Positions 6,530-20,231 of a DNA stretch of 64,000 nucleotides are shown one piece after another. The position numbers and the translations under genes were made by a program. Below the pieces are notes generated by a model. That model saw only the letters and a list, made by a program, of their open reading frames with translations, was not told where the DNA came from and searched no databases. Where the stretch lies: IMG/VR virus record IMGVR_UViG_3300037484_000445, positions 195,863 to 259,862 of that record; one strand, written 5' to 3'. This DNA is from a virus. Taxonomy: Duplodnaviria; Heunggongvirae; Uroviricota; Caudoviricetes. Each line of letters starts with the position of its first letter. Position 1 is the first letter of the stretch.

Positions 6530-7639
6530 ATGATCCCACTAGAACGACTACGCGCTATCAAACACATAATTGCACACGACAACTGTGCTGACGGGGTAGC
6601 CAGTGCAATGATCCTCAAGGATGTGTTGCCAAATGCCGACGTGCGTTTCATTCAATACGGCACCGAAGAACAACTGAAGCTTCCTGCTGTTGAGGGGATG
6701 ATCTTCGGTGACTTTTCCCCACACATCTCTCGTGTTAAGGAATTCCTCGACGTTGGGGCCGTCGTTTTAGACCACCATGGTGGTCCTGCGGAGTCCGTAA
6801 CGAAGATGTTCATCGAGCAAGGTTTGGGTGCCTTTGCTAGTGAAGCTACGGATCCTGGGAAAAGTGGGGCTTTACTAGCTTACGACAACGTATGGTTGCC
6901 CATGTCCAAAGAAGTGCTCAAGGACAGAGATCCCGTGTCATCTTTGCATCACCTAGAAGTTGTTCGAACTTTGGCGGTGCAAGCTGGGGTGTACGATACC
7001 TGGCAGACGAAGAACTCTTTGTGGCTGATTGCTTGTGAGCAGAAGGAAGCCCTGCACTTCTGGCCGTGGGATAAGATCGAAGTCACTCCCTACAATCTCT
7101 GGCAATCCGAGTTGCTGTCGACGGGCCCTATACTTTTTCAGCGTAATCTAAAGCACGTCAAGAAGTGCATTAAGGGGTCGCATACCTTCACGACGAGTAA
7201 GGGGCTTCGTGTCATGTTCTTCGAGGGCACCAAGCCCTCAAGTGACGCCGCCGAGCTGGTCGAGGACATCGACCTGGTCATTGGAACGGCTTTCTACGTT
7301 GATGCCGGCGAGCCCAAGATGATTTTCTCTACCCGATCTCATACGGGTTTCAATTGCCGAGCTTTGGCCTTGGCTCATGGGGGCAGCGGGCATACCAGAG
7401 CCGCCGGGTTTGCCTGGCCATTGAATGTCGGCGATCCCAACCCGTATTCGCTGATCGAAACAATCCTTGAACGCTACGAGTCCGTTGAAAGCGTATGGAA
7501 AACGATCATTTCTGAGCCTGGATTCGATAAGGGCGTGGCTTCGGGAATCATCAAATCCAGGGATCTGTACCAAAATCTGGTCCTCAATAGGACCTTTCAG
7601 ACGATCACGCCGCCCAGTTCAACAGATCAAACCCTTTAA
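6530..7639 (+). CDS. DHH/DHHA1-family phosphoesterase
   Basis: HDNCADG, DFS, LDHH, GGSGHTRAAGF; start placed 10 nt after AGTGTA. Confidence 0.85.
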   Translation: MIPLERLRAIKHIIAHDNCADGVASAMILKDVLPNADVRFIQYGTEEQLKLPAVEGMIFGDFSPHISRVKEFLDVGAVVLDHHGGPAESVTKMFIEQGLGAFASEATDPGKSGALLAYDNVWLPMSKEVLKDRDPVSSLHHLEVVRTLAVQAGVYDTWQTKNSLWLIACEQKEALHFWPWDKIEVTPYNLWQSELLSTGPILFQRNLKHVKKCIKGSHTFTTSKGLRVMFFEGTKPSSDAAELVEDIDLVIGTAFYVDAGEPKMIFSTRSHTGFNCRALALAHGGSGHTRAAGFAWPLNVGDPNPYSLIETILERYESVESVWKTIISEPGFDKGVASGIIKSRDLYQNLVLNRTFQTITPPSSTDQTL

Positions 7640-7642
7640 ATC

Positions 7643-7681
7643 CCTAGGGAACAGGCTGGTCGTCGAAGCCTGTTCCCTAGG
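7643..7681. terminator. perfect 15-bp inverted repeat between convergent genes
   Basis: cctagggaacaggct-N9-agcctgttccctagg. Confidence 0.7.
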
Positions 7682-7689
7682 CCTCGAGA

Positions 7690-7944
7690 TCACGTTCCCA
7701 GGGCCGCCACAGGACTTCGAGGCTTGTCGTACAACCTCTGACTTCTTGTGGGACCCTGACGTCGAGCCGTCGTTCTGGTAGGGAACTGGAAGGAATCCAC
7801 GATAACTAGGACCTCGTTGCTTGGATTACTGACCAGCTGTTCAAGATATCCTGGATCCCGGACCGCCGCGACAAATCCTCGATATTCTACCAACTTACCT
7901 GACGGCCTGTTTCTTACGATCACAGCTAGCGGGGTGGTCTTCAT
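7690..7944 (-). CDS. hypothetical protein
   Basis: ATG 11 nt after GGTGTA (7956-7961). Confidence 0.55.
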   Translation of the reverse strand: MKTTPLAVIVRNRPSGKLVEYRGFVAAVRDPGYLEQLVSNPSNEVLVIVDSFQFPTRTTARRQGPTRSQRLYDKPRSPVAALGT

Positions 7945-8002
7945 GTCTAGATCCATACACCATCGAAAGGTCTAATAGTCCGTTTTTGCAATCACTTAGG
8001 GG

Positions 8003-8824
8003 ATGGACCCTTTTGCTCACCGCGTAGCTGCTAGGTTCAAGTCCAAAAAGAGGCTTGAGTCTGGCAATACCGTTTACGTCTACAGCCCTAGACAGGTAGC
8101 CCTTCGTAATTCGGAGAAAGCTGGCCGTCTGGAGAAGCTTAGGGGTAGCATCAAAAGCCTCCGAAGCCAGGTTCGCAAGGACTTGGCTTCGGACGACCCA
8201 GATACGGCCCTTACGGCGCTCGCTGTAGCCCTCATAGACCATACTTACGAACGAGTAGGCAACGACGGGTCGGCGGAAGAAAGAGGCCACTACGGTGTCA
8301 CTGGTTGGCAACGGGACCATATCAGCTTCGGTAAGGGCAAAGCCACCATCCAGTACGTCGGTAAGTCTGGCGTCAAGCAGAAGAAGACCATCACGGATGG
8401 TCGCATCTTGGCCGCCTTGAAGGATGCTTATGAGGGCTGCGACGGCGATTCGATCTTTTCCCATGGGGTTGGAAAAGTCGATGCCAGCAAAGTGAACTCG
8501 TACCTCAAGAAGTTCAACGTGACAGCGAAAGACTTGAGGGGTTTTCACGCAAATCGTGAGATGCAAAGCGCTCTCAGGGCCGTTCGATCCAAAGGTGGTG
8601 CCCTTCCAGAGGATCACGATGAACGAGAGGCTCAGCTCAAGAAGGAATTCGAAAAAGCCCTCGAGATCACGGCTGAGGCCGTGGGTCACGAAGCGGCTAC
8701 TTTGAAAAACCAGTACCTCGTCCCAGGGCTAGAGGCCACCTTCCTCAAGGATGGAAAAGTCCTTGGGAGAATGAAGGCTGCTGTCGCCGAGCGTTTCAGA
8801 GAGTACCTCAATGGACACTCGTAA
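8003..8824 (+). CDS. type IB DNA topoisomerase, catalytic core only, with N-terminal RVAARF tag
   Basis: Catalytic pentad context: YERVGN, YVGKSG, TAKDLRGF, VGHE, NQYL. Confidence 0.85.
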   Translation: MDPFAHRVAARFKSKKRLESGNTVYVYSPRQVALRNSEKAGRLEKLRGSIKSLRSQVRKDLASDDPDTALTALAVALIDHTYERVGNDGSAEERGHYGVTGWQRDHISFGKGKATIQYVGKSGVKQKKTITDGRILAALKDAYEGCDGDSIFSHGVGKVDASKVNSYLKKFNVTAKDLRGFHANREMQSALRAVRSKGGALPEDHDEREAQLKKEFEKALEITAEAVGHEAATLKNQYLVPGLEATFLKDGKVLGRMKAAVAERFREYLNGHS

Positions 8825-10274: not shown

Positions 10275-10630
10275 AGTCGGCCGTCGACCTAGATGAACGC
10301 TGGGCAAGACGGTTTGACGCTACCCAGCGTCGCTTAGAGCTCAAGGAACGGGCTGTGGCCTACAAGGGAGGTAGCTGTTGTCTCTGCGGCTATGACCGGT
10401 GTCTACAGGCCTTGGAGTTTCATCACTTGGACCCGGGTTCAAAGGACTTCGAGATTTCGTCCAAGATGCGTTGGGATCAGGTAAAGCTGGAGCTAGACAA
10501 GACCATCCTGGTTTGCTCAAATCACCATCGTGAGGTGCATGCTGGGCTTTACCCGTCCCTACTAGGCGGGTGCATCGAAGAGGGCTCTAGCGGCGTCTAC
10601 AACGAGCTGGAAGACCCTCCGGAGGAGTAA
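10271..10630 (+). CDS. HNH endonuclease
   Basis: CCLCGY...LEFHHLDP...LVCSNHHREVH. Confidence 0.85.
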   Translation: MKSAVDLDERWARRFDATQRRLELKERAVAYKGGSCCLCGYDRCLQALEFHHLDPGSKDFEISSKMRWDQVKLELDKTILVCSNHHREVHAGLYPSLLGGCIEEGSSGVYNELEDPPEE

Positions 10631-10800
10631 CCTTCGCCTGACCAACCGCCACCCATGAGAATGAAGGCTGTCCTACTTATGAGCCGCTTGGCCGAGACTT
10701 CACCACAACTGGGGCAGACCTTGATAGGATCCTCGGTGATCCGCTGATCCTGTTCCCAACTGTGTTCGCAGGCTTCACACTTGTACTCGTAGGTCGGCAC
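10597..10800 (-). CDS. FmdB-family zinc-ribbon protein
   Basis: MPTYEYKC..C...CPSCG...RLIS...F...G.GW. Confidence 0.85.
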   Translation of the reverse strand: MPTYEYKCEACEHSWEQDQRITEDPIKVCPSCGEVSAKRLISRTAFILMGGGWSGEGYSSGGSSSSL

Positions 10801-11626
10801 TTGGAACCTCGTAATTGGTAATGATGAGTTCGGTGATGGGGCCCCGCTTATCTCCTTTGGAGTTCACACACCTTTTGGCTTGAACCTCAGTGAAGTGGAA
10901 CCCCTTGTAGAGTTCTCGGACGATGGGGGAATTCGAATTCGACGCAACAACTTGCACATTCTTGGTGGAAAGAGTTCGAAACATTGCCGCTAGGCGCTCT
11001 TGTTCTTTGATCCCGAACCCTGACTTCGTGTATGACGTGAAGTAGCTGGTGTCGTTGAGGGGTACATACGGCGGGTCCAAAAAGACCAGATCCCCAGGGA
11101 CCGCAGTGCTGCAGGACTCCTCGAAGTCAATGGACTGCAACCACACGAACATCTCGAGAGCTCTGGCATCGCTACGAAGGATGGCTTCATTGTAGATGCT
11201 CGGGTTGCTAAACTTGCCGAAAGAGACGTTGAATTGTCCGCTCTTATTTACCCTATAGAGGCCATTGAAGCATGTTTTATTGAGGTAAATGGTTCGTGCT
11301 GCCCGTCGAACCGGAGAGTAGCGTGAGACGTCTACTCGTCTCAACTGATCAAACACATCGGGATCGTACTTCAGTTTCTTGAGCTGCGAGATAAGGTCTT
11401 CGGGGAAGTCTCGGACGATCCGATAGGCGTCCATGAGCTCTTGGTTGATGTCATTGATGACAGCCCGTTGAAAAGCTTCTCTCTTGGCCAAGGCGAAAAA
11501 CACAGCACCCCCACCAATGAAGGGCTCGTAGAAAGTATGCATACTTGTGGGAAATATGCTCAACAATCTAGCTAACAACTGGCCTTTTCCGCCTACCCAC
11601 TTAAGAAACGGTGAGGGTTCATACAT
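10775..11626 (-). CDS. dam: Dam-type DNA adenine methyltransferase
   Basis: FLKWVGGK, EPFIGGGAVFF, LNKTCFNGLYRVN, DPPY. Confidence 0.9.
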   Translation of the reverse strand: MYEPSPFLKWVGGKGQLLARLLSIFPTSMHTFYEPFIGGGAVFFALAKREAFQRAVINDINQELMDAYRIVRDFPEDLISQLKKLKYDPDVFDQLRRVDVSRYSPVRRAARTIYLNKTCFNGLYRVNKSGQFNVSFGKFSNPSIYNEAILRSDARALEMFVWLQSIDFEESCSTAVPGDLVFLDPPYVPLNDTSYFTSYTKSGFGIKEQERLAAMFRTLSTKNVQVVASNSNSPIVRELYKGFHFTEVQAKRCVNSKGDKRGPITELIITNYEVPSADLRVQV

Positions 11627-11661
11627 AACCCTGTGGGTGTACACCATTCCCAGTGAAATGC

Positions 11662-12003
11662 CTACTCGGAAGTAAGTATTTCGACCAAATCTCTAATTAC
11701 TGTTGGTCTTGAACCCTTGGTGACTCTTGGCGTCCCCTTAGGGATCGTCGCCGTACTTCCTGTGTGAAATAAGAAATGTTGTGCAAGCGTAGGACGGATA
11801 CAGCAAACCTTCTCGTAGAATTCAATGCCGGACATTGCTGGCATGTCCATATCCGATAGAACACAGCTGTAAGTATTAGTACGTATAGCTTCTAGTGCTG
11901 CGTACCCATCGACGAACACGTCTACCTTGTACCTGTACTTGAGAATACGGGCAACCGCAGTGGCTGTCACCCTCTCATCGTCAAGTACTAGGATCCGCTT
12001 CAT
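11662..12003 (-). CDS. stand-alone response-regulator receiver domain
   Basis: ILVLDDE, LSDMDMPAMSG, HTG. Confidence 0.8.
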   Translation of the reverse strand: MKRILVLDDERVTATAVARILKYRYKVDVFVDGYAALEAIRTNTYSCVLSDMDMPAMSGIEFYEKVCCIRPTLAQHFLFHTGSTATIPKGTPRVTKGSRPTVIRDLVEILTSE

Positions 12004-12033
12004 GGAAGCCAATACGGTAAGGACTTCCAAATC

Positions 12034-12663
12034 TTAAGCATTTTCCAGTAGGTCTTTAATTGGTTGGTAGCTTCGGCGATGAATTGGACAAGGGCCTAGC
12101 TTTTTCAGAGCTTCGGCGTGTTCTCTGGTGCCATAGCCCACGTGCTTAGCGAAGCCGTATCCAGGGTACACTTGGGCTGCTTGTACCATCATGTCGTCAC
12201 GGGTAACCTTCGCAATGATACTTGCAAGGGACACGGCAGGTATCAGATTGTCGGCTTTTGGAAGCCCAATAGATCCAGGTATGCCGAGGCTGGAGGTGCC
12301 GTGCTGGAAGCCATCCACGACAATCAGGCACGAGGGGCCTGCCTTAGGCAACAACGCTTCTAGAGCTTTCCGGTGGGCTTGAATCAGGGCCTCTCCGACG
12401 CCTATTTCATCGATCTGTTGTGAAGTGAATTCGACCAGCTTGTAGGTGACGGGCGTCGTTTTCGTCCACCGATCATAGGCTGTTCGTCGGCGAGTGGGGG
12501 ATAGGGTCTTGGAATCCGCAATACCAGGCTCATTGAAAGTTCTCGGAAGTAACACACTACACACAAGTAGACTTCCGGCCCAAGCCCCGTAACCGACTTC
12601 ATCTGAACCCAGCACCCATTTGGCTGTGCTGTTGTCAATCGCTTCAATTCCAGTGTGTTTCAT
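12034..12663 (-). CDS. rnhB: ribonuclease HII
   Basis: GSDEVGYG, DSK, VDG, KAD...ASIIAKVTRD, GYGT..H...HRRSY. Confidence 0.92.
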   Translation of the reverse strand: MKHTGIEAIDNSTAKWVLGSDEVGYGAWAGSLLVCSVLLPRTFNEPGIADSKTLSPTRRRTAYDRWTKTTPVTYKLVEFTSQQIDEIGVGEALIQAHRKALEALLPKAGPSCLIVVDGFQHGTSSLGIPGSIGLPKADNLIPAVSLASIIAKVTRDDMMVQAAQVYPGYGFAKHVGYGTREHAEALKKLGPCPIHRRSYQPIKDLLENA

Positions 12664-12670
12664 ACAATTC

Positions 12671-13511
12671 CTAACGCAGACGTTTGAATTCTTCGAAAAA
12701 AGCCCCAAGATCCACGCTATCTCGAAGTCTGTCACCTAAGTGGGACCAAGCATCTTGATCTGCAAGAAAGCAGGTTCGGCAAAACTCAGAACCCCCACGT
12801 TTGCGATAGTTCGTGCAACCTTTGCAATACTTGTCCTTTTGAGTATTGCATGAAGGACATAGCGGTTGAAATGCTAGCACACCAATACGGTCGTGTTCGG
12901 AATTGCCGGCAACCCTGAAATTGACACGATGATCTCTTGTGAGGCACTCATGCCGGTTACCGTTGATCACTAAGGGCCTGGAGCAAAAGACACAACGAAG
13001 GCGCCCTTGGTAGAGAGCCAAAAACTGTTGGTCCTCCAACGAAGACATTGGACGCCGGGGGTCAAATAACCCCTCATATCGAGAAGGATCCAACGAATAG
13101 CTGGCATAAATGCCTAGTCTCGCACTATTGACTGGGATCCCACGTTCTTCAAGTTCCGAGGCTATTTTTGGAATCTCCTGCAATCCGAGGCGAGTGCGAA
13201 GCATCGGGGTGCTGAGGGGTGACTCTTTGAGAACCTCCCTCAAAAAGCGCAAGTAGCGACGGTATTGATTAGTCTCTTGAAGTAGAGTCCAGACGCCCAG
13301 ACCACACTCGGGACCTAACGCTTGAACCAAGTCTGGATTGGCCCCAGGCACTTGGTCCACAATGCTTTGACATAGCTCTTCTGGAGCTTTTGGGGCCACT
13401 ATGAGTACTGGAGCTACAGCATCCAAGTCATCCGTGCTGGCGGGAACTTCGATTGATTTGAGCTCTTTTGGGGGCGGGTCTTTAGCCCACCAATCATCGT
13501 CATCTTCAAGA
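12671..13511 (-). pseudogene. HNH (Cys-rich, restriction-endonuclease-like) nuclease gene interrupted near its start by the transposon
   Basis: CVFC...DHR...QPLCPSCNTQK...C..C...C..C. The frame stays open from 13426 up to the TSD, and its ATG lies at 20213-20211 beyond the element. Confidence 0.7.
13503..13511 (+). repeat. left target-site duplication TCTTCAAGA
   Basis: Identical to 20200-20208. Confidence 0.9.
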
Positions 13512-13526
13512 GGCTTTGCCCTAGAA
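13512..13526 (+). repeat. left terminal inverted repeat GGCTTTGCCCTAGAA
   Basis: Exact reverse complement of 20185-20199. Confidence 0.9.
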
Positions 13527-13557
13527 GCCCTTATGAGGCAAGACTTCTGCGACGGGC

Positions 13558-13653
13558 ATAGGGTATTGACCTATAAAGGCTAATTACAGCCATTTTGTAC
13601 CTGCTAGGCCTTTCAGGTGCGAAATGGACACACATCCATAGGTCAATACCTAT
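13558..13653. promoter_or_regulatory. pair of inverted ATAGG-N6/7-CCTAT palindromic sites near the left end
   Basis: atagggtattgacctat (13558-13574) and ataggtcaatacctat (13638-13653); the second overlaps TATAAT at 13651. Confidence 0.5.
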
Positions 13654-13699
13654 AATGAGCCTTGCTAGGTCTGGTAAGCCAAGCTAACCTTCTGGGGCT

Positions 13700-14206
13700 A
13701 TGGCTTCTTTTCGCGTACTAATTGATGGGGTCCCGGTAGATGTATCGTCGCCAGAGGATGCCCTAGCTCTGATCCGAGCATCAAAACGGCAACCTGCACC
13801 GACGGGCTCAGCAGGCCCGGTCCAGGTTGCCCTGCCCCCGGACGCCGATCAGAAGCAGAGCCGCCCCAAGCCGCCCACGAGCAAGACGCCGAGGACTGAC
13901 CCGAGCGAGTCCGTGGCCAGCGGGGCTATCTGGGGGAGCCTCATCGCCTCGTTGAACAGAAGTCAGCTCGATGTCCTCTACACGATAAAGAACAACCCAG
14001 ACGGCGTTACATCGCCGCAAATTGGGGAACTCTTGGACCGGGAGGCAAACTCGATTGCCGGGACCATCGGTGGCGGACTCCAGAAGAACATTCCACGGGC
14101 CGGCCTAGACTTCGATCAAGTCATTCGGGTGCATGTTGTTCACGGTAAGAACCATTACCTACCCGGACCGCTGCTACTGGCCCAGGAGGTTCCACCAATC
14201 AAATGA
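13700..14206 (+). CDS. putative winged-HTH protein (paralogue A)
   Basis: Similar layout to 14588-15010. Confidence 0.65.
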   Translation: MASFRVLIDGVPVDVSSPEDALALIRASKRQPAPTGSAGPVQVALPPDADQKQSRPKPPTSKTPRTDPSESVASGAIWGSLIASLNRSQLDVLYTIKNNPDGVTSPQIGELLDREANSIAGTIGGGLQKNIPRAGLDFDQVIRVHVVHGKNHYLPGPLLLAQEVPPIK

Positions 14207-14240
14207 GGCACCTTGACCAAGTAGCTTAGCCCCAAATGCA

Positions 14241-14262
14241 GAAAAGCCCCCTTTCGGGGGCT
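14241..14262 (-). terminator. intrinsic terminator on the minus strand
   Basis: Minus strand reads agccccc-gaaa-gggggct-tttc. Confidence 0.65.
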
Positions 14263-14411
14263 CCCTCACCGGATCAGCGTCACGTCTAGCAAACTTCCGC
14301 TGGGCCGGTCAACGTCAATCTGGAAGGATTGAGTCCCAAAGACTCTCCCTCCATTTCGGCGGCCGTGCAACTAGATTTTGCTGGTCAACCCCAAAAAAAT
14401 GGAGGAGTCCC

Positions 14412-14504
14412 ATGGACTTTGCTCATTTGAGGGAAGACTTCGTCGCTCCCTTGGTCATCCGGCTGAGGTGGTGGTGGGCCGCTGAAGGCATAGCCCACAT
14501 GTAG
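14412..14504 (+). CDS. 30-aa peptide MDFAHLREDFVAPLVIRLRWWWAAEGIAHM (below ORF-track cut-off)
   Basis: GGAGGAG at 14401-14407 just upstream of the ATG. Confidence 0.35.
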   Translation: MDFAHLREDFVAPLVIRLRWWWAAEGIAHM

Positions 14505-14587
14505 TCGACTCCCGGCATGGGAGGGATCCATCTAGATCCCTCCCATAGCTTAGGCTGAGTCTTGCTTGAAAGGACTGGAGAGTAGCC

Positions 14588-15010
14588 ATGGCGATTCGTT
14601 TCCTTGCCACCGGTGTCATCGAGGCGGACACCGTCCCAGAAGCCATCGAGTGGGAGCGCAGGAAGATCCCTGCACCCAAGCCCAGGGGGCGACCTCGCAA
14701 GACTAGACACCACCCGGCTGGCACCAGCCCCTGGGATCGCTTCTGTGACCTCATCCAGGGTCCAAGTGGGGTTCGGATGCGGAAGATCTTGACCTTGGTC
14801 AAAGGCCGCGGAGAAACCGGAATTGACATCCGCGAGCTTTCTACAGCCCTAAAGGACCAAAGTGCCAACAACATCGGTGGGCTACTTGCGGGTTTCGTTC
14901 AGAAAGCGAAGAAGTCGGGTGTCGGCTACGAAGACCTCATCTTTCGGGGTCCAGATGGCCGATTCAGGCCCGGCAACCTACTGCAGACTCATGACCCGCC
15001 TATACCCTGA
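14588..15010 (+). CDS. putative winged-HTH protein (paralogue B)
   Basis: KILTLVK...GIDIRELSTAL...NNIGGLL...FRPGNLL...PPI. Confidence 0.65.
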   Translation: MAIRFLATGVIEADTVPEAIEWERRKIPAPKPRGRPRKTRHHPAGTSPWDRFCDLIQGPSGVRMRKILTLVKGRGETGIDIRELSTALKDQSANNIGGLLAGFVQKAKKSGVGYEDLIFRGPDGRFRPGNLLQTHDPPIP

Positions 15011-15183
15011 TTCCGCCTAGGCCGATCCCAGTAGGGTGACTTGCACTTGGGGCATACCTTTGGTTTCTCGACTTTGGGCGCCTTTGGTTGCACCGAAACG
15101 AGTGCTTCGATGCCCCTGGGAATCCACTGATGTGCGCATCTTAGGCACTGAAACCCCCAAAGTTCGATCTTCCGTAGTGACAT
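14989..15183 (-). CDS. small zinc-ribbon protein divergent from the transposase
   Basis: CLRCAHQWIPR...CPKCKSPYW. Confidence 0.7.
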   Translation of the reverse strand: MSLRKIELWGFQCLRCAHQWIPRGIEALVSVQPKAPKVEKPKVCPKCKSPYWDRPRRNQGIGGS

Positions 15184-15242
15184 TATCTGTCCTATCCCGA
15201 GTTGAGAAACCTATACCTGGCGCGTAATATACTTCATAGGAC

Positions 15243-16481
15243 ATGGCAACCACTACTGAGATCGACAGGCGTCTTGAGAGAGGCAAAGCAATCGCGGCCG
15301 GTGGTCGGTTGAGGCCTATCGGGGACGGGACTTGGGCAGTCCTATCGCAGACCGGCGCCAAGAAGAAGTACCTCGTTGACCCTGAGAAGCAGACCTGTAC
15401 TTGTCCTGACTTTGAAGCCTGGGAGTTGCCCTGCAAGCACATCTACGCCGTTCGGCTCGCCCAAAACCCTCAGTTTTCCAAGGAGAACCCATCTAAATGC
15501 AAGGAATCCGACACCATGCGGCCAACCTACCAACAGGATTGGCCGAGCTACAATGCGGCTCAGATCCATGAGCGGGAGCACTTCGAGAAGCTCTTGAAGG
15601 ATCTCTGTCATGGAATCCCAGAGCCCCCTCAGAAGAAGGGTAGGCCTCGGTTGACCTTGTCCGACATGGTCTACTCGGCCACGACCAAGGTCTATACGGG
15701 GTTCAGTGGAAGGCGGGCTTCAACCGATATCCACGAGTGTCAGGACCACGGCCATATTGACCATGCTCCCCACCACAACTCGATCAGCCGGTACCTCGGG
15801 ATGAAGGAGTTGACCCCGATCCTCAAGCACTTGATTGAGGTAAGCGCGTTGCCACTCAAGGCAGTCGAAACCCAGTTCGCCATTGACTCGACTGGGTTCT
15901 CGACTTGTGTCTATGACCGATGGTTCGATCACAAGTATGGAACAGCAGAGAGTGGCCGACGACAGCGGTGGATCAAGTGCCACGCAATGGTTGGTACCCT
16001 GACCAACGTGGTGACCGCCGTCGAAGTGAGCGAGAGTTACGTGTCCGACACCAACCAGCTACCTGAACTTCTAAGTCGAACAGCAGCAAACTTCGATACC
16101 CAAGAAATCTCAGCCGACAAAGCTTACTTATCGAATGTCAACTTGACGGTGATCGAGATGTTTGGGGCCAAGCCCTTTGTCCCATTCAAGGTTGATTCGA
16201 AGGGATCTGGAATGCCAGCCTGGGAGCGCATGTGGCATCAGTTCTGGTTCATGCGGGACAAGTTCATGACGCACTACCACCGTAGGTCAAACGTGGAGAG
16301 TACCTTCTCAGCGCTGAAGCGGAAGCTTGGTGGATCAGTACGTTCGAAGGACGTGATCGCCCAATACAACGAGGTGTTGTGCAAGGTCTTGGCGTACAAC
16401 ATCACGGTGGTCATCCACGAGATGTACGAACTTGGAATCGATCCTGGGTTTGAGAATCTTGCTGGGACCGGGACGCACTAG
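15243..16481 (+). CDS. DDE transposase (IS4/IS5-like) with N-terminal SWIM zinc finger
   Basis: CTCPD...CKH (SWIM); IDSTG; ADKAY; YHRRSNVESTFSALK fits Y-x2-R-x3-E-x6-K. Confidence 0.9.
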   Translation: MATTTEIDRRLERGKAIAAGGRLRPIGDGTWAVLSQTGAKKKYLVDPEKQTCTCPDFEAWELPCKHIYAVRLAQNPQFSKENPSKCKESDTMRPTYQQDWPSYNAAQIHEREHFEKLLKDLCHGIPEPPQKKGRPRLTLSDMVYSATTKVYTGFSGRRASTDIHECQDHGHIDHAPHHNSISRYLGMKELTPILKHLIEVSALPLKAVETQFAIDSTGFSTCVYDRWFDHKYGTAESGRRQRWIKCHAMVGTLTNVVTAVEVSESYVSDTNQLPELLSRTAANFDTQEISADKAYLSNVNLTVIEMFGAKPFVPFKVDSKGSGMPAWERMWHQFWFMRDKFMTHYHRRSNVESTFSALKRKLGGSVRSKDVIAQYNEVLCKVLAYNITVVIHEMYELGIDPGFENLAGTGTH

Positions 16482-16525
16482 AACTTGAAAATGGTGTACT
16501 TGTTTTTGGAAGAAGGTACGAAACC

Positions 16526-17126
16526 ATGACTCAAACAAATGTTGCCCTGCTTGGCGTAGCCATGACCGCATTGGTGGCAGTCGTTGGCTGGTTGGTCACC
16601 CAGCGTAGCTCTGCCAAGCTGGCGGTTCGTGCTCGCCAAGCGGACCATATCAGGACTCAGATCGGTAACCTCTATGGTCCACTTGTCTTCTTCGCCGAAC
16701 TGAATGAGCTACTACTGATACGAAGCGAGAAGATCCGGGTGGCATACGACGAGTACTTCGATACTCGACAAGGTGACCGCTTCTCCAAAGAAATGACCGA
16801 AGTCATCGCCAAGATGAATCTCTACGGGCAGAAAGTCGTATGCAACAACCAGGACGTGATTCCCCTGTTGAGGGATAACTGGGGGCTGCTTGATGCCAAT
16901 GATGCAGAACTTGTGAAGGAATACTTGTCTGACATCTTCATTCAAGACTTGGAGTCGGACAGAGAGGGTCCAACCTTGCCTGCGGAATTCTACCTGCCCA
17001 AGATGTTGAAGAGCACCCTCGGGCCAAAGATGATCCTCCGACCGGGCTTTGCTGAAAGCTTGCGGCGGTCTACTCACCAAGCGAAAGGAACTCAGTCGAT
17101 TGATCGGAACGGCCCCACCAAAGTGA
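16526..17126 (+). pseudogene. N-terminally membrane-anchored protein, probably frameshifted near 17067
   Basis: TM segment at aa 5-24. The ORF-track frame runs antisense through two real genes, while a shifted frame gives LLTKRKELSRLIGTAPPK-stop at 17124-17126. Confidence 0.5.
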
Positions 17127-17176
17127 TGTGTTCTGTTGTACCGGTTCCAGCACGAGAGCCTCGATCAGCCTACCTA

Positions 17177-17440
17177 CTACGGCACGATCCTATATGTCGC
17201 TTGGACTTGGTAGTTTCCGAGATCCCTGGTGTCCACAACGAGATTCCATGTTCCGCCAAGCGGGGTCGGTATTCGAATCGGGAATTGCCTATACTGCCCA
17301 CCATAGTATCGAAACTGTTGACCCGTCTGATAGTTGAGAAAGTTGGAGTCATCCATCAGCATGATGTTGGCGGGAGCATTACAGGTAACTTCGACCCCCA
17401 AACCAGCGACAAGCGAAACGCGAGTTCGGAGGAACCTCAT
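17177..17440 (-). CDS. DUF1883-family protein
   Basis: VEVT...ANIMLMDDSNF.NY..G...YYGG...P.RI..P..G.WNLVVD. Confidence 0.8.
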   Translation of the reverse strand: MRFLRTRVSLVAGLGVEVTCNAPANIMLMDDSNFLNYQTGQQFRYYGGQYRQFPIRIPTPLGGTWNLVVDTRDLGNYQVQATYRIVP

Positions 17441-17805
17441 GTATCCTCCGATGACGGTGGGACAGCCGTTCCTTGGTGCCGGCAGTCTCGATTACGGATA
17501 GTCTTGATCACTCGTCTTGACCCTCTTGAGGCCCGCCACCAAACGATTAGCAACACCAGACCAGCGATAATCGATACAACCGAAATGGTGGAAAAGACGT
17601 TGAACGTTCGATCACTTTCAACTTTGGTGAAAGCAAGTGTTGCCCATACGCTAATGCCCGTTGGCAACAAGGCTAGAGCCAAGTTCAGGAACAACGAAGA
17701 ACCATCACCTCGCTCAAGTGCATCAAGCTCATCCTCCCGAACGTGAAAGATCACGGTCTCGGGAATCGGGACGTGTCGATTCTTTGGGTCCAGGGCTTGA
17801 GTCAT
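17437..17805 (-). CDS. two-TM membrane protein
   Basis: Two hydrophobic helices and a basic C-tail; coupled to the DUF1883 gene. Confidence 0.7.
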   Translation of the reverse strand: MTQALDPKNRHVPIPETVIFHVREDELDALERGDGSSLFLNLALALLPTGISVWATLAFTKVESDRTFNVFSTISVVSIIAGLVLLIVWWRASRGSRRVIKTIRNRDCRHQGTAVPPSSEDT

Positions 17806-17938
17806 GACCGGCCCCGAAGGCTAACACTCATCGGACTGTTCTGGCCTGCCCCGGTACCGTCCCTCCACCACCGGCTCATCAAGCAGGGCGCGGGGAAGCA
17901 CCCACTACTAACTTTCCAGCCCTACGATTTGCTCAGCC

Positions 17939-18202
17939 TCATCTCTTCCTGGGCCTACCCGGGCGTCTCTTCTTCGACGCCGGTTCGTCAAGGAGACTGC
18001 GGGTAGGTACCCCAAATCCCTTGGCCAACCGAACTAGCGTCCGGATGGTTAGGTTCATGCCCATCTCCATCCGCTGAAGGTTGTTGACCGGCATCTTGAG
18101 CTTCTCTGCTGCTTGCTGCTGAGTCCACCCCAGTTCTTCCCTGATTTCCGCTATTCGGCGCCCAACATTCAAGATGATCTGGTCAGCCCGTTCTGGTTCC
18201 AC
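17939..18202 (-). CDS. XRE-family HTH regulator
   Basis: GRRIAEIREELGWTQQQAAEKL...NLTIRTL. Confidence 0.85.
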   Translation of the reverse strand: MEPERADQIILNVGRRIAEIREELGWTQQQAAEKLKMPVNNLQRMEMGMNLTIRTLVRLAKGFGVPTRSLLDEPASKKRRPGRPRKR

Positions 18203-18272
18203 GGGCCATAGCGTTGCTTTTCTTGGTACCTCAGAAACATTACATGATATTGTAGTGTTTCTGAGGTGGGGT

Positions 18273-18578
18273 ATGACACGGAATCAATCAGGAAAGCTAA
18301 AAAGTCGGCCCGAGAGAATGAGTCCAGACCCAATGGTGACCTCGCTACCCGACGATCCGGTTGATCGGTTGCTCGCCACCGACCCAGTCCTGATCAAGTT
18401 GGGCCGCGAGATCCGGCGGCACCAACGGCTACTCAAGGATGCCTGCTCCGAGGAAGCTTGGCGAATCTACCTGCGGATCGAAGAGCTGATGAACGAGAGG
18501 ATGTTCTCGTTTGCGGACAAGTGGACAAAGTGGTCTCCACCTCGAAGAAGTCCCACGGCTGGCCCCAAGGGGTCATAA
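18273..18578 (+). CDS. hypothetical protein
   Basis: Fills the gap between the two XRE genes. Confidence 0.55.
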   Translation: MTRNQSGKLKSRPERMSPDPMVTSLPDDPVDRLLATDPVLIKLGREIRRHQRLLKDACSEEAWRIYLRIEELMNERMFSFADKWTKWSPPRRSPTAGPKGS

Positions 18579-18585
18579 CCAGGGG

Positions 18586-18861
18586 TCACCCCTTCCCACT
18601 CGGTCTACCCTTCTTGATCTCAAGGGATCGTCGCTTTGGCTTCTTGACCAAATCCTCAAAGGTGGTTCCAAGCACGTTGGCGATCTCGGCCAACTTACCA
18701 AGGGTCAGATTCTGCTTACCGCGCTCCACGAGCCCAACGTACTGAACTGAGCACCTCAGCCTCTCGGCAAACTCGGCCTGTGTCAGGCCTTTGGTTCTAC
18801 GTAGTTCAGCTATGCGACGGGCCACTCTGCTGATCAGCGCCTGGGGGTCGGTGGGGCTCAC
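18586..18861 (-). CDS. XRE-family HTH regulator
   Basis: RIAELRRTKGLTQAEFAERL...VERGKQNLTL. Confidence 0.85.
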   Translation of the reverse strand: MSPTDPQALISRVARRIAELRRTKGLTQAEFAERLRCSVQYVGLVERGKQNLTLGKLAEIANVLGTTFEDLVKKPKRRSLEIKKGRPSGKG

Positions 18862-18945
18862 GCTCGGAGCCCACGTCGGAAGCGCCCTCAGTAAAAGCAA
18901 GTTATAGCTTTGACATTGCGTTGGTATTCAGATCACGATCCGTTC

Positions 18946-19791
18946 ATGCAACTTCAAGCAGCCAAGTGCCCTGAGTGTGGTGCCGATATCCAAGTTCCAA
19001 CCAATCGCTCCACGGTCAAGTGCATGTACTGCGGCAAGGACATCCGCGTTCAACAAGCCATCAGTGCTGCTGGACCACCCGTAGACCACCTCATTCAGCT
19101 TGCCCAGGCAGCGGAAGCATCCGGCAATCACGAGGAAGCTTACGAGTATTGGACTCGTGCCCTCGAAGTTGACCCCACCAACGCGAGTGCGTGGATAGGG
19201 AAGGCAATCTCAGCAGGATGGCAGTCGAACCTGATCCAAGATCGACTTTCCGAGATGACTGCTGGGATTGATCAGGCTCTGAACTACTCGGACAAAGAAC
19301 GGGAAGGACTCGCAGAAGAGGCCTCCCATCGAATCGTGGAAGTAGTCCAGGCCTACTACGGGCTGTCTATCGACCACACGATGGAGTTCATCACCGTGGA
19401 CACGTCGTGGCCGGAACACATCGAACGATCACTCTCGATGCTGGAGGCCATGTCCAAGGCTATCGAGCTAGCCCCTGGCGACCTCCACGTGAAGACCGAG
19501 ACGTTGGCTATTGTCGAAGCACTGCTCAAGGGTATCGAGTACCCCAAGGGAGAGTTCTCGGAAGGGTTCGAGTATCTGAATGTTCCACCTGACCTTCGAC
19601 CTCGGCTGGAGAGCAGTCGCATTGACCTGGTAGCCAAGATTAAGGTCCAGGATCCAACGTATGTACCCAAGGACGTGAAGCCAGTCAAAGGGCCGGGGTG
19701 CGGGTGTCAACTCGTTGTTCTCTTGGTAGCCCTCGTCATCGCCGCTGTAGTCCTGCACTTCCTGATCAAGTTCTCGAAGGGCGACTTCTAG
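18946..19791 (+). CDS. zinc-ribbon + TPR protein with C-terminal TM helix
   Basis: CPECG...CMYCG; AYEYWTRALEVDPTN; hydrophobic C-terminus. Confidence 0.75.
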   Translation: MQLQAAKCPECGADIQVPTNRSTVKCMYCGKDIRVQQAISAAGPPVDHLIQLAQAAEASGNHEEAYEYWTRALEVDPTNASAWIGKAISAGWQSNLIQDRLSEMTAGIDQALNYSDKEREGLAEEASHRIVEVVQAYYGLSIDHTMEFITVDTSWPEHIERSLSMLEAMSKAIELAPGDLHVKTETLAIVEALLKGIEYPKGEFSEGFEYLNVPPDLRPRLESSRIDLVAKIKVQDPTYVPKDVKPVKGPGCGCQLVVLLVALVIAAVVLHFLIKFSKGDF

Positions 19792-19813
19792 AGTAGGCAC
19801 CCTGCTCAGGGCT

Positions 19814-20122
19814 CTAGGGTGCGAGTTTAGCCACCCCCCACGTTTTCCCATCAACATCTAGTTTCTGAACTTGAAGAGCACCGCTGGGATCCAGTCCGAC
19901 ACGGTAGATGCCGTTGGCATCCCAGGAAGGTGACGGACAGCTTAATGAACCGAACATTTTGACGGCCTGAACCAGGTAGGGGGTGATTGCGCCGGGGCTA
20001 GCGATAACCTGAACCACGTTCTGAAAGTCTGTTGGTTTCCAATTCAGGGACATGGCGCCATTGTCAATGTCCATTTCTCTACCTGTCAAGCCTAGACTGA
20101 TCTGCTTCGAGGACTGGTCCAT
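19814..20122 (-). CDS. hypothetical protein
   Basis: 102-aa ORF, the last in the element. Confidence 0.5.
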   Translation of the reverse strand: MDQSSKQISLGLTGREMDIDNGAMSLNWKPTDFQNVVQVIASPGAITPYLVQAVKMFGSLSCPSPSWDANGIYRVGLDPSGALQVQKLDVDGKTWGVAKLAP

Positions 20123-20148
20123 AGCTCACAGTTTTCATAAGTGAGTTA

Positions 20149-20182
20149 TGGGTCAGCTCAGGGAGCTTTTGGGTCAGCTCAG
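20149..20182 (+). repeat. two 13-bp subterminal direct repeats TGGGTCAGCTCAG
   Basis: 20149-20161 and 20170-20182, period 21 bp. Confidence 0.85.
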
Positions 20183-20184
20183 AT

Positions 20185-20199
20185 TTCTAGGGCAAAGCC
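20185..20199 (-). repeat. right terminal inverted repeat
   Basis: ttctagggcaaagcc. Confidence 0.9.
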
Positions 20200-20208
20200 T
20201 CTTCAAGA
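20200..20208 (+). repeat. right target-site duplication TCTTCAAGA
   Basis: Identical to 13503-13511. Confidence 0.9.
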
Positions 20209-20231
20209 TCCATTTATGCTAACCCTTGGGC

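Follow-up and report, generated by a model that had tools for sequence, protein, structure and literature searches.

A cargo-bearing transposon with a SWIM-DDE transposase related to IS903 in a huge-phage genome

The stretch analysed here, 64,000 nucleotides of the IMG/VR virus record IMGVR_UViG_3300037484_000445 (hereafter the window, to whose first letter all positions refer), carries a mobile element of 6,688 bp at 13512-20199. Our comparative analysis indicates that this element is very probably a transposon with one transposase, of a SWIM-DDE lineage akin to IS903, a member of the IS5 family of insertion sequences (IS), and that it was recently inserted and is probably still active. This reading is directly supported by exact ends, a 9-bp target duplication, an empty allele, a second site, and catalytic and zinc-binding residues that are all intact. 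In its form the element is a transporter IS or unit transposon. The record as a whole spans 451,925 bp and is 94% complete; its phage status was taken from IMG/VR, and a search of the genome for Terminase_6N gave no match.

Exact ends, an empty site and a second site

The element is bounded by perfect 15-bp terminal inverted repeats and, outside these, by two copies of the 9-bp target TCTTCAAGA (Table 1). A 6.7-kb transposon with exact ends had been proposed in an initial annotation of the window, and is confirmed by the repeats, the duplication and an empty site in two studies. Of the span given there, 13503-20213, the start is correct, and the end lies 5 bp beyond the right target copy, at the displaced ATG of a gene split by the insertion. 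The genome search revealed one copy each of the transposase and of the end pair, and no second copy of the element was found in the 451,925 bp. A flanking pair of IS, as in a composite transposon, is not present in the genome, and the single transposase with its single end pair supports the earlier description as a unit (non-composite) cargo transposon built on an IS5-family-like enzyme.

The empty allele was represented in two sequencing runs of separate studies, X3 (wetland, 2025) and X4 (freshwater sediment, 2018), each with a contig that joins 13502 to 20200. These contigs skip 6,697 bases, corresponding to the 6,688 bp of the element and the 9 bp of one target copy; one copy is left, its nine letters fit either side, and both flanks are covered at a depth of about 3-11. 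Empty-site reads had been named beforehand as a way of checking the insertion, and with these two runs the case of a region lacking any empty allele falls away. Direct observation of the empty site in two studies shows that the insertion is not due to chance, and the element is a real and recent insertion. Run X1 (pond, 2022) covered the element sequence only, mostly 99% alike, and one of its contigs has a loose end exactly at 20199, followed by unrelated DNA that this genome lacks. X1 thus holds the same element at another site and, with the right end joined to other DNA, the unit moves whole. The thin cover of both element and flanks in run X2 may represent the source population, and no RNA data set was listed among the holders. 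Neither the empty junction nor the right end had an exact match among viral contigs, and no relatives of the flank proteins were found among viral sequences.

When the element and one of the target copies are taken out, the ATG at 20213 leads in frame into the gene body (13511-12671). The product of this split gene matched the type II restriction endonuclease model REase_II of PADLOC (E=3.6e-9) and, weakly, Pfam HNH (E=0.07), and the insertion into its first codons probably disabled or truncated a restriction-like gene of HNH type.

Base composition sets the element slightly apart, with a GC content of 54.9% against 52.3% in the genome, which places it in the top 2% of equal-sized windows. The hexamer GGTGTA, which peaks 9-13 nt ahead of ATG codons in the phage genome, had been described as missing from the genes of the element. 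One copy is in fact present, at 16493, and it stands 27 nt 5' of the ATG at 16526 and so outside the typical spacing. With 4.7 copies expected, a count this low has P(<=1)=0.05, and counts as low occur in 91 out of 891 genome windows of equal size. The scarcity of GGTGTA was therefore rejected as proof of foreign origin, an argument that is weak when about 10% of genome windows look the same.

The transposase, its family and the huge-phage branch

Domain searches of the transposase revealed an N-terminal SWIM domain (E=2.5e-7) and a DDE_Tnp_1 domain (E=1.9e-20), so that the single SWIM-DDE enzyme of the initial annotation, one copy in the genome with both domains matched, was borne out. The residues D215, D292 and E352, the Y345-R348-E352-K359 motif and the putative zinc ligands C52/C54/C64/H66 are invariant across 52 homologues. 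The structural model was confident (predicted local distance difference test, pLDDT, 83.6), with a poorly ordered linker (82-90) between SWIM and core, and its best PDB matches were DDE transposases and integrases. The hhalign comparison matched the transposase profile to ISSod12 over residues 93-384 (98.7% probability, E=3e-16), and the named matches, on plasmids, were IS5-family enzymes of 27-28% identity. No full-length close match was found among GenBank phages and PLSDB plasmids. In the transposase tree three references stand apart from all 69 SWIM rows, which form a separate, well-supported clade. The enzyme had been called IS4/IS5-like, of which the IS5 part stands, the nearest kin being the IS903 group, and the IS4 part does not.

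Among the clusters scored, 5,634 homologue clusters were found at E<=1e-50, ranging over Chloroflexota, methanogens, Acidobacteriota, Planctomycetota and viral contigs. We examined 191 loci with a full-length enzyme (L numbers below) and delimited elements by their ends and 9-bp duplication. This yielded 64 distinct complete elements of 2,326-11,562 bp (median 4,070), every one with cargo; where long flanks were available, 38 of 55 loci resolved to a complete element. IS-sized repeats around homologous transposases, earlier named as the finding that would speak against a long unit, were looked for and occurred in 0 of 152 testable loci, taking both ends within 300 bp of the transposase gene as IS-sized. 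The cargo load had been considered unusual, which does not hold: 6.7 kb is normal for the branch of the window element (5.5-9.7 kb), and members of the family carry cargo as a rule. In one Acidobacteriota genome an identical unit of 2,533 bp is present at three sites with three different duplications. Outside the branch of the window element the cargo often consists of restriction-modification genes. Target choice is loose, with at most a weak bias for T on the left and A on the right of the 9-mer (38 sites). The target in the window is indeed a perfect palindrome, as first described, but this is incidental: it is the only one among 38 family sites (mean paired positions 1.32 vs 1.02 in the background), and a palindromic target as a family rule was thus ruled out. 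A separate observation is a non-autonomous remnant of 409 bp in L007 (8316-8724), flanked by an exact 9-bp duplication and with both ends preserved, which resembles a miniature inverted-repeat transposable element derived from the family.

The ends of family elements are more elaborate than a single repeat, as the inner part of the terminal inverted repeat recurs at fixed positions near both ends and does so asymmetrically. The triple end, as we call one of the two, bears direct copies at three positions, 6, 24 and 44-45 (mean 9.4 and 9.5 of 12 matches). At the opposite end one copy is inverted and lies near 33-44, and another is found either near 55, in direct orientation, or near 53-64, in inverted orientation. 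The window element has its triple end on the right, and on its left the copies are at 6 and 56. Of 10 left ends in the close branch, 8 have a copy at 55-56, where 0.045 matches would be expected per 60 bp, and the references ISSod12 and ISVa2 have no such subterminal copies. We regard the copies as candidate transposase-binding sites. The triple end lies upstream of the transposase in 53 of the 64 elements and downstream in all six complete members of the branch (6/6), which suggests that the inner module flipped once in the ancestor of this branch. Two further features were observed near the ends. A perfect 13-bp inverted repeat, its arms 63 nt apart (13562-13650), spans the position-56 site, with an extra inverted copy near position 130. 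In most close relatives (L093, L103, L109, L114, L115 and L116) an outward-pointing TGGCAC-like box (sigma-54 -24 type) occurs 80-115 bp inward of the triple-site end; it was not seen there in the window.

The nearest enzymes, of 57-87% identity, are located on contigs of 465, 238, 108, 82, 421 and 466 kb, and the window enzyme belongs to a fully supported six-row clade of the transposase tree. Complete members of this branch measure 5,488-9,688 bp. Phage context was assigned from the flanks: those of L082, L114, L104 and L115 have genes in common with the phage of the window (blastp), and those of L083, L085 and L109 are rich in GGTGTA, with L103 and L116 outside this assignment. A relative of 9,491 bp stands among ABC-transporter genes on a Polyangiaceae chromosome, and exchange between Polyangiaceae-type hosts and phages is plausible, with the trees differing on its direction. 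When the empty sites of the window element, L103 and L114 are reconstructed, long frames reappear, and the branch therefore often lands inside genes. Among strains of one 466-kb phage (L085-L092), the sequence immediately beyond the left end of the element varies (about 7100-8400). No right end was found there within 10 kb, a TnpB-like gene is polymorphic, and the copy appears to be decaying.

Core and cargo genes

The first inventory of the genes, with two winged helix-turn-helix (wHTH) proteins, a Zn ribbon, two XRE proteins, DUF1883 and three membrane proteins, was essentially right (Table 1). All of them had been taken as passengers, which applies to the membrane gene at 16526, the DUF1883 and two-helix membrane (2-TM) pair, the XRE-2/TPR cassette and the gene at 19814; these represent the true cargo. 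Both wHTH genes, the Zn ribbon and one XRE gene instead belong to a recurrent core. In the family this core comprises the transposase and a small divergent regulator, joined in the branch of the window element by two wHTH genes and an XRE gene. The small gene that diverges from the transposase is common, and several archaeal members have other small proteins instead of the Zn ribbon. The two wHTH genes are limited to the close branch and nearly constant in it, and the XRE gene is usual there.

Table 1. Features of the element and of the gene it splits (window positions; aa, amino acids; TPR, tetratricopeptide repeat)
Feature	Position	Strand	Remarks
Body of split phage gene	12671..13511	-	HNH-type, restriction-endonuclease-like; sole possible start left is internal TTG 13426
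Left target copy	13503..13511	.	9 bp; one copy only in empty allele
Left terminal inverted repeat	13512..13526	+	15 bp; starts GGCTTTG like IS903-group ends
Subterminal inner-motif copy	13567..13576	+	Position 56 (55 in relatives); candidate transposase-binding site
wHTH-1, 168 aa, branch core	13700..14206	+	MarR_2 weak; homologues in L082, L083, L085, L104, L114, L116
wHTH-2, 140 aa, branch core, wHTH-1 paralogue	14588..15010	+	Structure matches wHTH/DUF6416 (Atlas); 35-46% homologues in 8/10 close loci
Zn-ribbon protein, 64 aa, divergent from transposase; probable regulator	14989..15183	-	In 28/63 other complete elements
Sigma-70-like promoter match	15202..15230	+	59-bp gap before transposase; consensus match only, count not above chance
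SWIM-DDE transposase, 412 aa	15243..16481	+	D215/D292/E352, Y345-R348-E352-K359 and SWIM C52/C54/C64/H66 intact
Cargo membrane protein, 406 codons	16526..17746	+	Atlas feature matches 0.96-0.97 to 190-213-aa hypothetical/DUF4760-like clusters
Cargo DUF1883, 87 aa, partner of 2-TM gene	17177..17440	-	Pfam E=1e-20
Cargo 2-TM membrane protein, 122 aa	17437..17805	-	592 related clusters
XRE regulator 1, recurrent in branch	17939..18202	-	Homologues in close relatives
Small partner gene, divergent from XRE-1	18174..18578	+	True start probably further downstream; homologues in L082, L103, L114, L115
XRE regulator 2, divergent from TPR gene	18586..18900	-	69% to XRE beside L116 TPR gene
Cargo Zn-ribbon/TPR protein, C-terminal membrane anchor	18910..19791	+	80-86% homologues inside L114, L115, L116
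Cargo gene, up to 102 aa	19814..20122	-	No convincing family match
Two subterminal inner-motif copies	20146..20176	-	Positions 45 and 24 from right end; triple-site end with terminal inverted repeat
Right terminal inverted repeat	20185..20199	-	15 bp; X1 loose end exactly at 20199
Right target copy	20200..20208	.	9 bp
Displaced start of split gene	20209..20213	-	ATG at 20213

The TPR gene, always next to a divergent XRE gene, is shared at 80-86% identity with three other elements that have different enzymes, which points to cassette exchange between elements of the family. The membrane gene at 16526 was found in none of the 63 other complete elements. With 406 codons against about 200 aa in its family, its frame has probably lost its stop and now runs antisense across the next two genes. 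The overlap with the DUF1883 and 2-TM genes looks as if arrival of that cassette had removed the stop codon. DUF1883 was the sole match in the PHROGs search. The 2-TM gene adjoins DUF1883 in both homologue contigs looked up (L228 and L229), with the order reversed in the window, and the two genes form a recurrent module, a candidate defence pair of sensor and membrane effector. DUF1883-TIR fusions (TIR being here a protein domain) belong to defence-associated clades (10.64898/2026.10.06.757174).

Defence cargo recognised in close relatives comprises a dCTP deaminase, PDC-S15, a Pycsar-like cyclase and AlbA_2; the deaminase lies at 11482-13053 of L083, and FRG, the cyclase and AlbA_2 at 13075-17257 of L103. 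The cargo of the window element itself (the DUF1883 and 2-TM pair and the other membrane proteins) is most likely of defence type as well. An Rfam search gave no match, a search for DUF1883 homologues yielded no usable match, and the promoter and terminator counts were not above chance.

Several observations concern the neighbourhood of the insertion. The split HNH gene is the first of a minus-strand run (10775-13511) that also codes for RNase HII, a receiver domain and a Dam-type methyltransferase. Nuclease and methylase may have formed a type II restriction-modification pair borne by the phage, of which the transposon knocked out the former and left the latter. In X3 (record 19) a sequence 89% alike to the 3' end of the TPR gene (19593-19791) lies about 0.9 kb into the HNH-gene side, where X3 departs from the window (12951-13341); it may belong to a second related element or be a free cassette beside the same site. 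Another variable spot is near the methyltransferase gene, where X3 has 735 other letters in place of the 164 bp at 10324-10489.

Competing explanations, mechanism and known systems

That the assembly is at fault, or that a resident region of the phage contains repeats by chance, has next to no probability: the genome is a metagenomic virus record and the palindromic target leaves the boundary locally ambiguous, but the exact empty allele in two other studies refutes this explanation, the frame of the split gene is restored, and an identical architecture is present in 63 other elements. The terminal heptamer and the 9-bp duplication are shared with IS903-group elements and cargo varies widely from member to member, as would be expected if an ordinary IS of that group had taken up neighbouring DNA via a distant look-alike end, by one-ended or aberrant transposition, its cargo being incidental. 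IS-sized members are lacking at all 152 loci, however, the far end is a conserved array of sites at fixed positions, unlike a chance look-alike, and conserved core genes lie between the transposase and this end, so that such a pickup is largely refuted and highly improbable.

A further explanation goes beyond transposition itself, namely that the branch has been selected as a gene shuttle in huge phages, carrying host-type defence modules against competing phages, with the wHTH pair tying jumping to infection. The supported clade of closest transposases, with members of known context on huge-phage-like contigs, the relative on the Polyangiaceae chromosome, the defence genes recognised in relatives and the published DUF1883-TIR fusions are in accordance with it. 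On the other hand, one copy per phage, absence from sister strains at the window site, and loci that are all different, several of them within genes, fit a selfish element equally well; in addition, contig sampling is biased to long phage contigs and the trees disagree on the direction of transfer. We consider the shuttle rather unlikely. The preferred reading, a recently inserted and probably active transposon related to IS903, also has several points against it. Its mobility is read from sequence comparisons, and the second-site evidence consists of one low-depth contig with the right end only. The best NCBIfam model, the IS903-type IS5 model NF033579, scored 115.7 bits and did not pass its cut-off of 140. 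Comparison of the element's own cargo genes with PADLOC gave no convincing match; with defence genes present in relatives, the defence role of the window cargo is therefore one that we infer.

Under the transposon reading, the transposase, perhaps via its SWIM domain, would bind one end at three sites and the opposite end at two or three, pair the ends across several kb and excise the unit. Insertion would follow at 9-bp staggered cuts with little sequence preference. IS903 transposes mostly by cut-and-paste, and the same may apply here; no resolvase gene was found in the element. The Zn-ribbon and wHTH proteins most likely regulate the expression of transposase and cargo, and cargo turnover might be achieved by small regulator-plus-gene cassettes that are swapped by recombination between elements.

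IS5-family elements are known as minimal insertion sequences, and IS catalogues would label elements such as this one as a bare transposase. A lineage that always carries genes would provide a route for the spread of restriction and other defence genes, and its exact ends delimit the cargo cleanly, which makes them usable for mining candidate defence systems. The copy in the window offers the filled, empty and second site of one element in natural populations of huge phages. A system that moves 2-11 kb with one enzyme would be simple to test as a delivery tool. The added value of our analysis lies in the direct evidence of mobility (empty and second site), the measured end layout and the huge-phage branch. 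Tentatively, the elements might constitute an uncatalogued family distinct from the IS903 group, in which the SWIM-DDE enzyme and asymmetric multi-site ends make cargo obligatory, together with a larger, flipped wHTH branch, mainly in huge phages, that moves defence cassettes (including DUF1883 and 2-TM) between myxobacterial hosts and phages; we regard this combined proposal as possible, with somewhat less than even chances.

Elements of the IS903 group are about 1.05 kb long and carry the transposase gene only, which codes for an enzyme of about 300-307 aa without SWIM; they have one site per end and generate a 9-bp target duplication. ISSod12 (1,058 bp as measured) and ISVa2 (1,054 bp), which we take to be members of this group, both start with GGCTTTG. 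The element has in common with the group the GGCTTTG ends, the 9-bp duplication and a homologous DDE core with the Y-(2)-R-(3)-E-(6)-K motif. It differs in the 27-28% identity of its enzyme, in the 412 aa with an N-terminal SWIM finger against about 307 aa, in the 2.3-11.6 kb with cargo of its family against 1,054-1,058 bp of the references, and in the subterminal end sites, absent in both references. By size, domain content, end structure and model cut-off it falls outside the IS903 group.

Transporter IS (tIS) are IS derivatives with passenger genes (PMC9330008). Like them, the element has one IS-type transposase, one end pair and passenger genes inside, and moves as a unit; unlike them, it belongs to a lineage in which cargo is the rule throughout, the regulator core is conserved and the multi-site ends are asymmetric. 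Neither an IS903-related SWIM tIS nor this family was found in the literature searched, a search that did not extend to ISfinder, TnCentral and the classic reviews. The Tn3 family comprises unit transposons with a TnpA of about 1,000 aa, a resolvase and a 5-bp duplication, and Tn7/Mu-type elements have asymmetric multi-site ends and a TnsC/MuB-type ATPase. The element stands outside the Tn3 family and, compared with both types, has an enzyme of unrelated class and size, a 9-bp rather than 5-bp duplication, and neither a resolvase nor a TnsC/MuB-type ATPase. What it shares with Tn3-family and Tn7/Mu-type elements is non-composite carriage of cargo and several candidate sites per end in an asymmetric arrangement.

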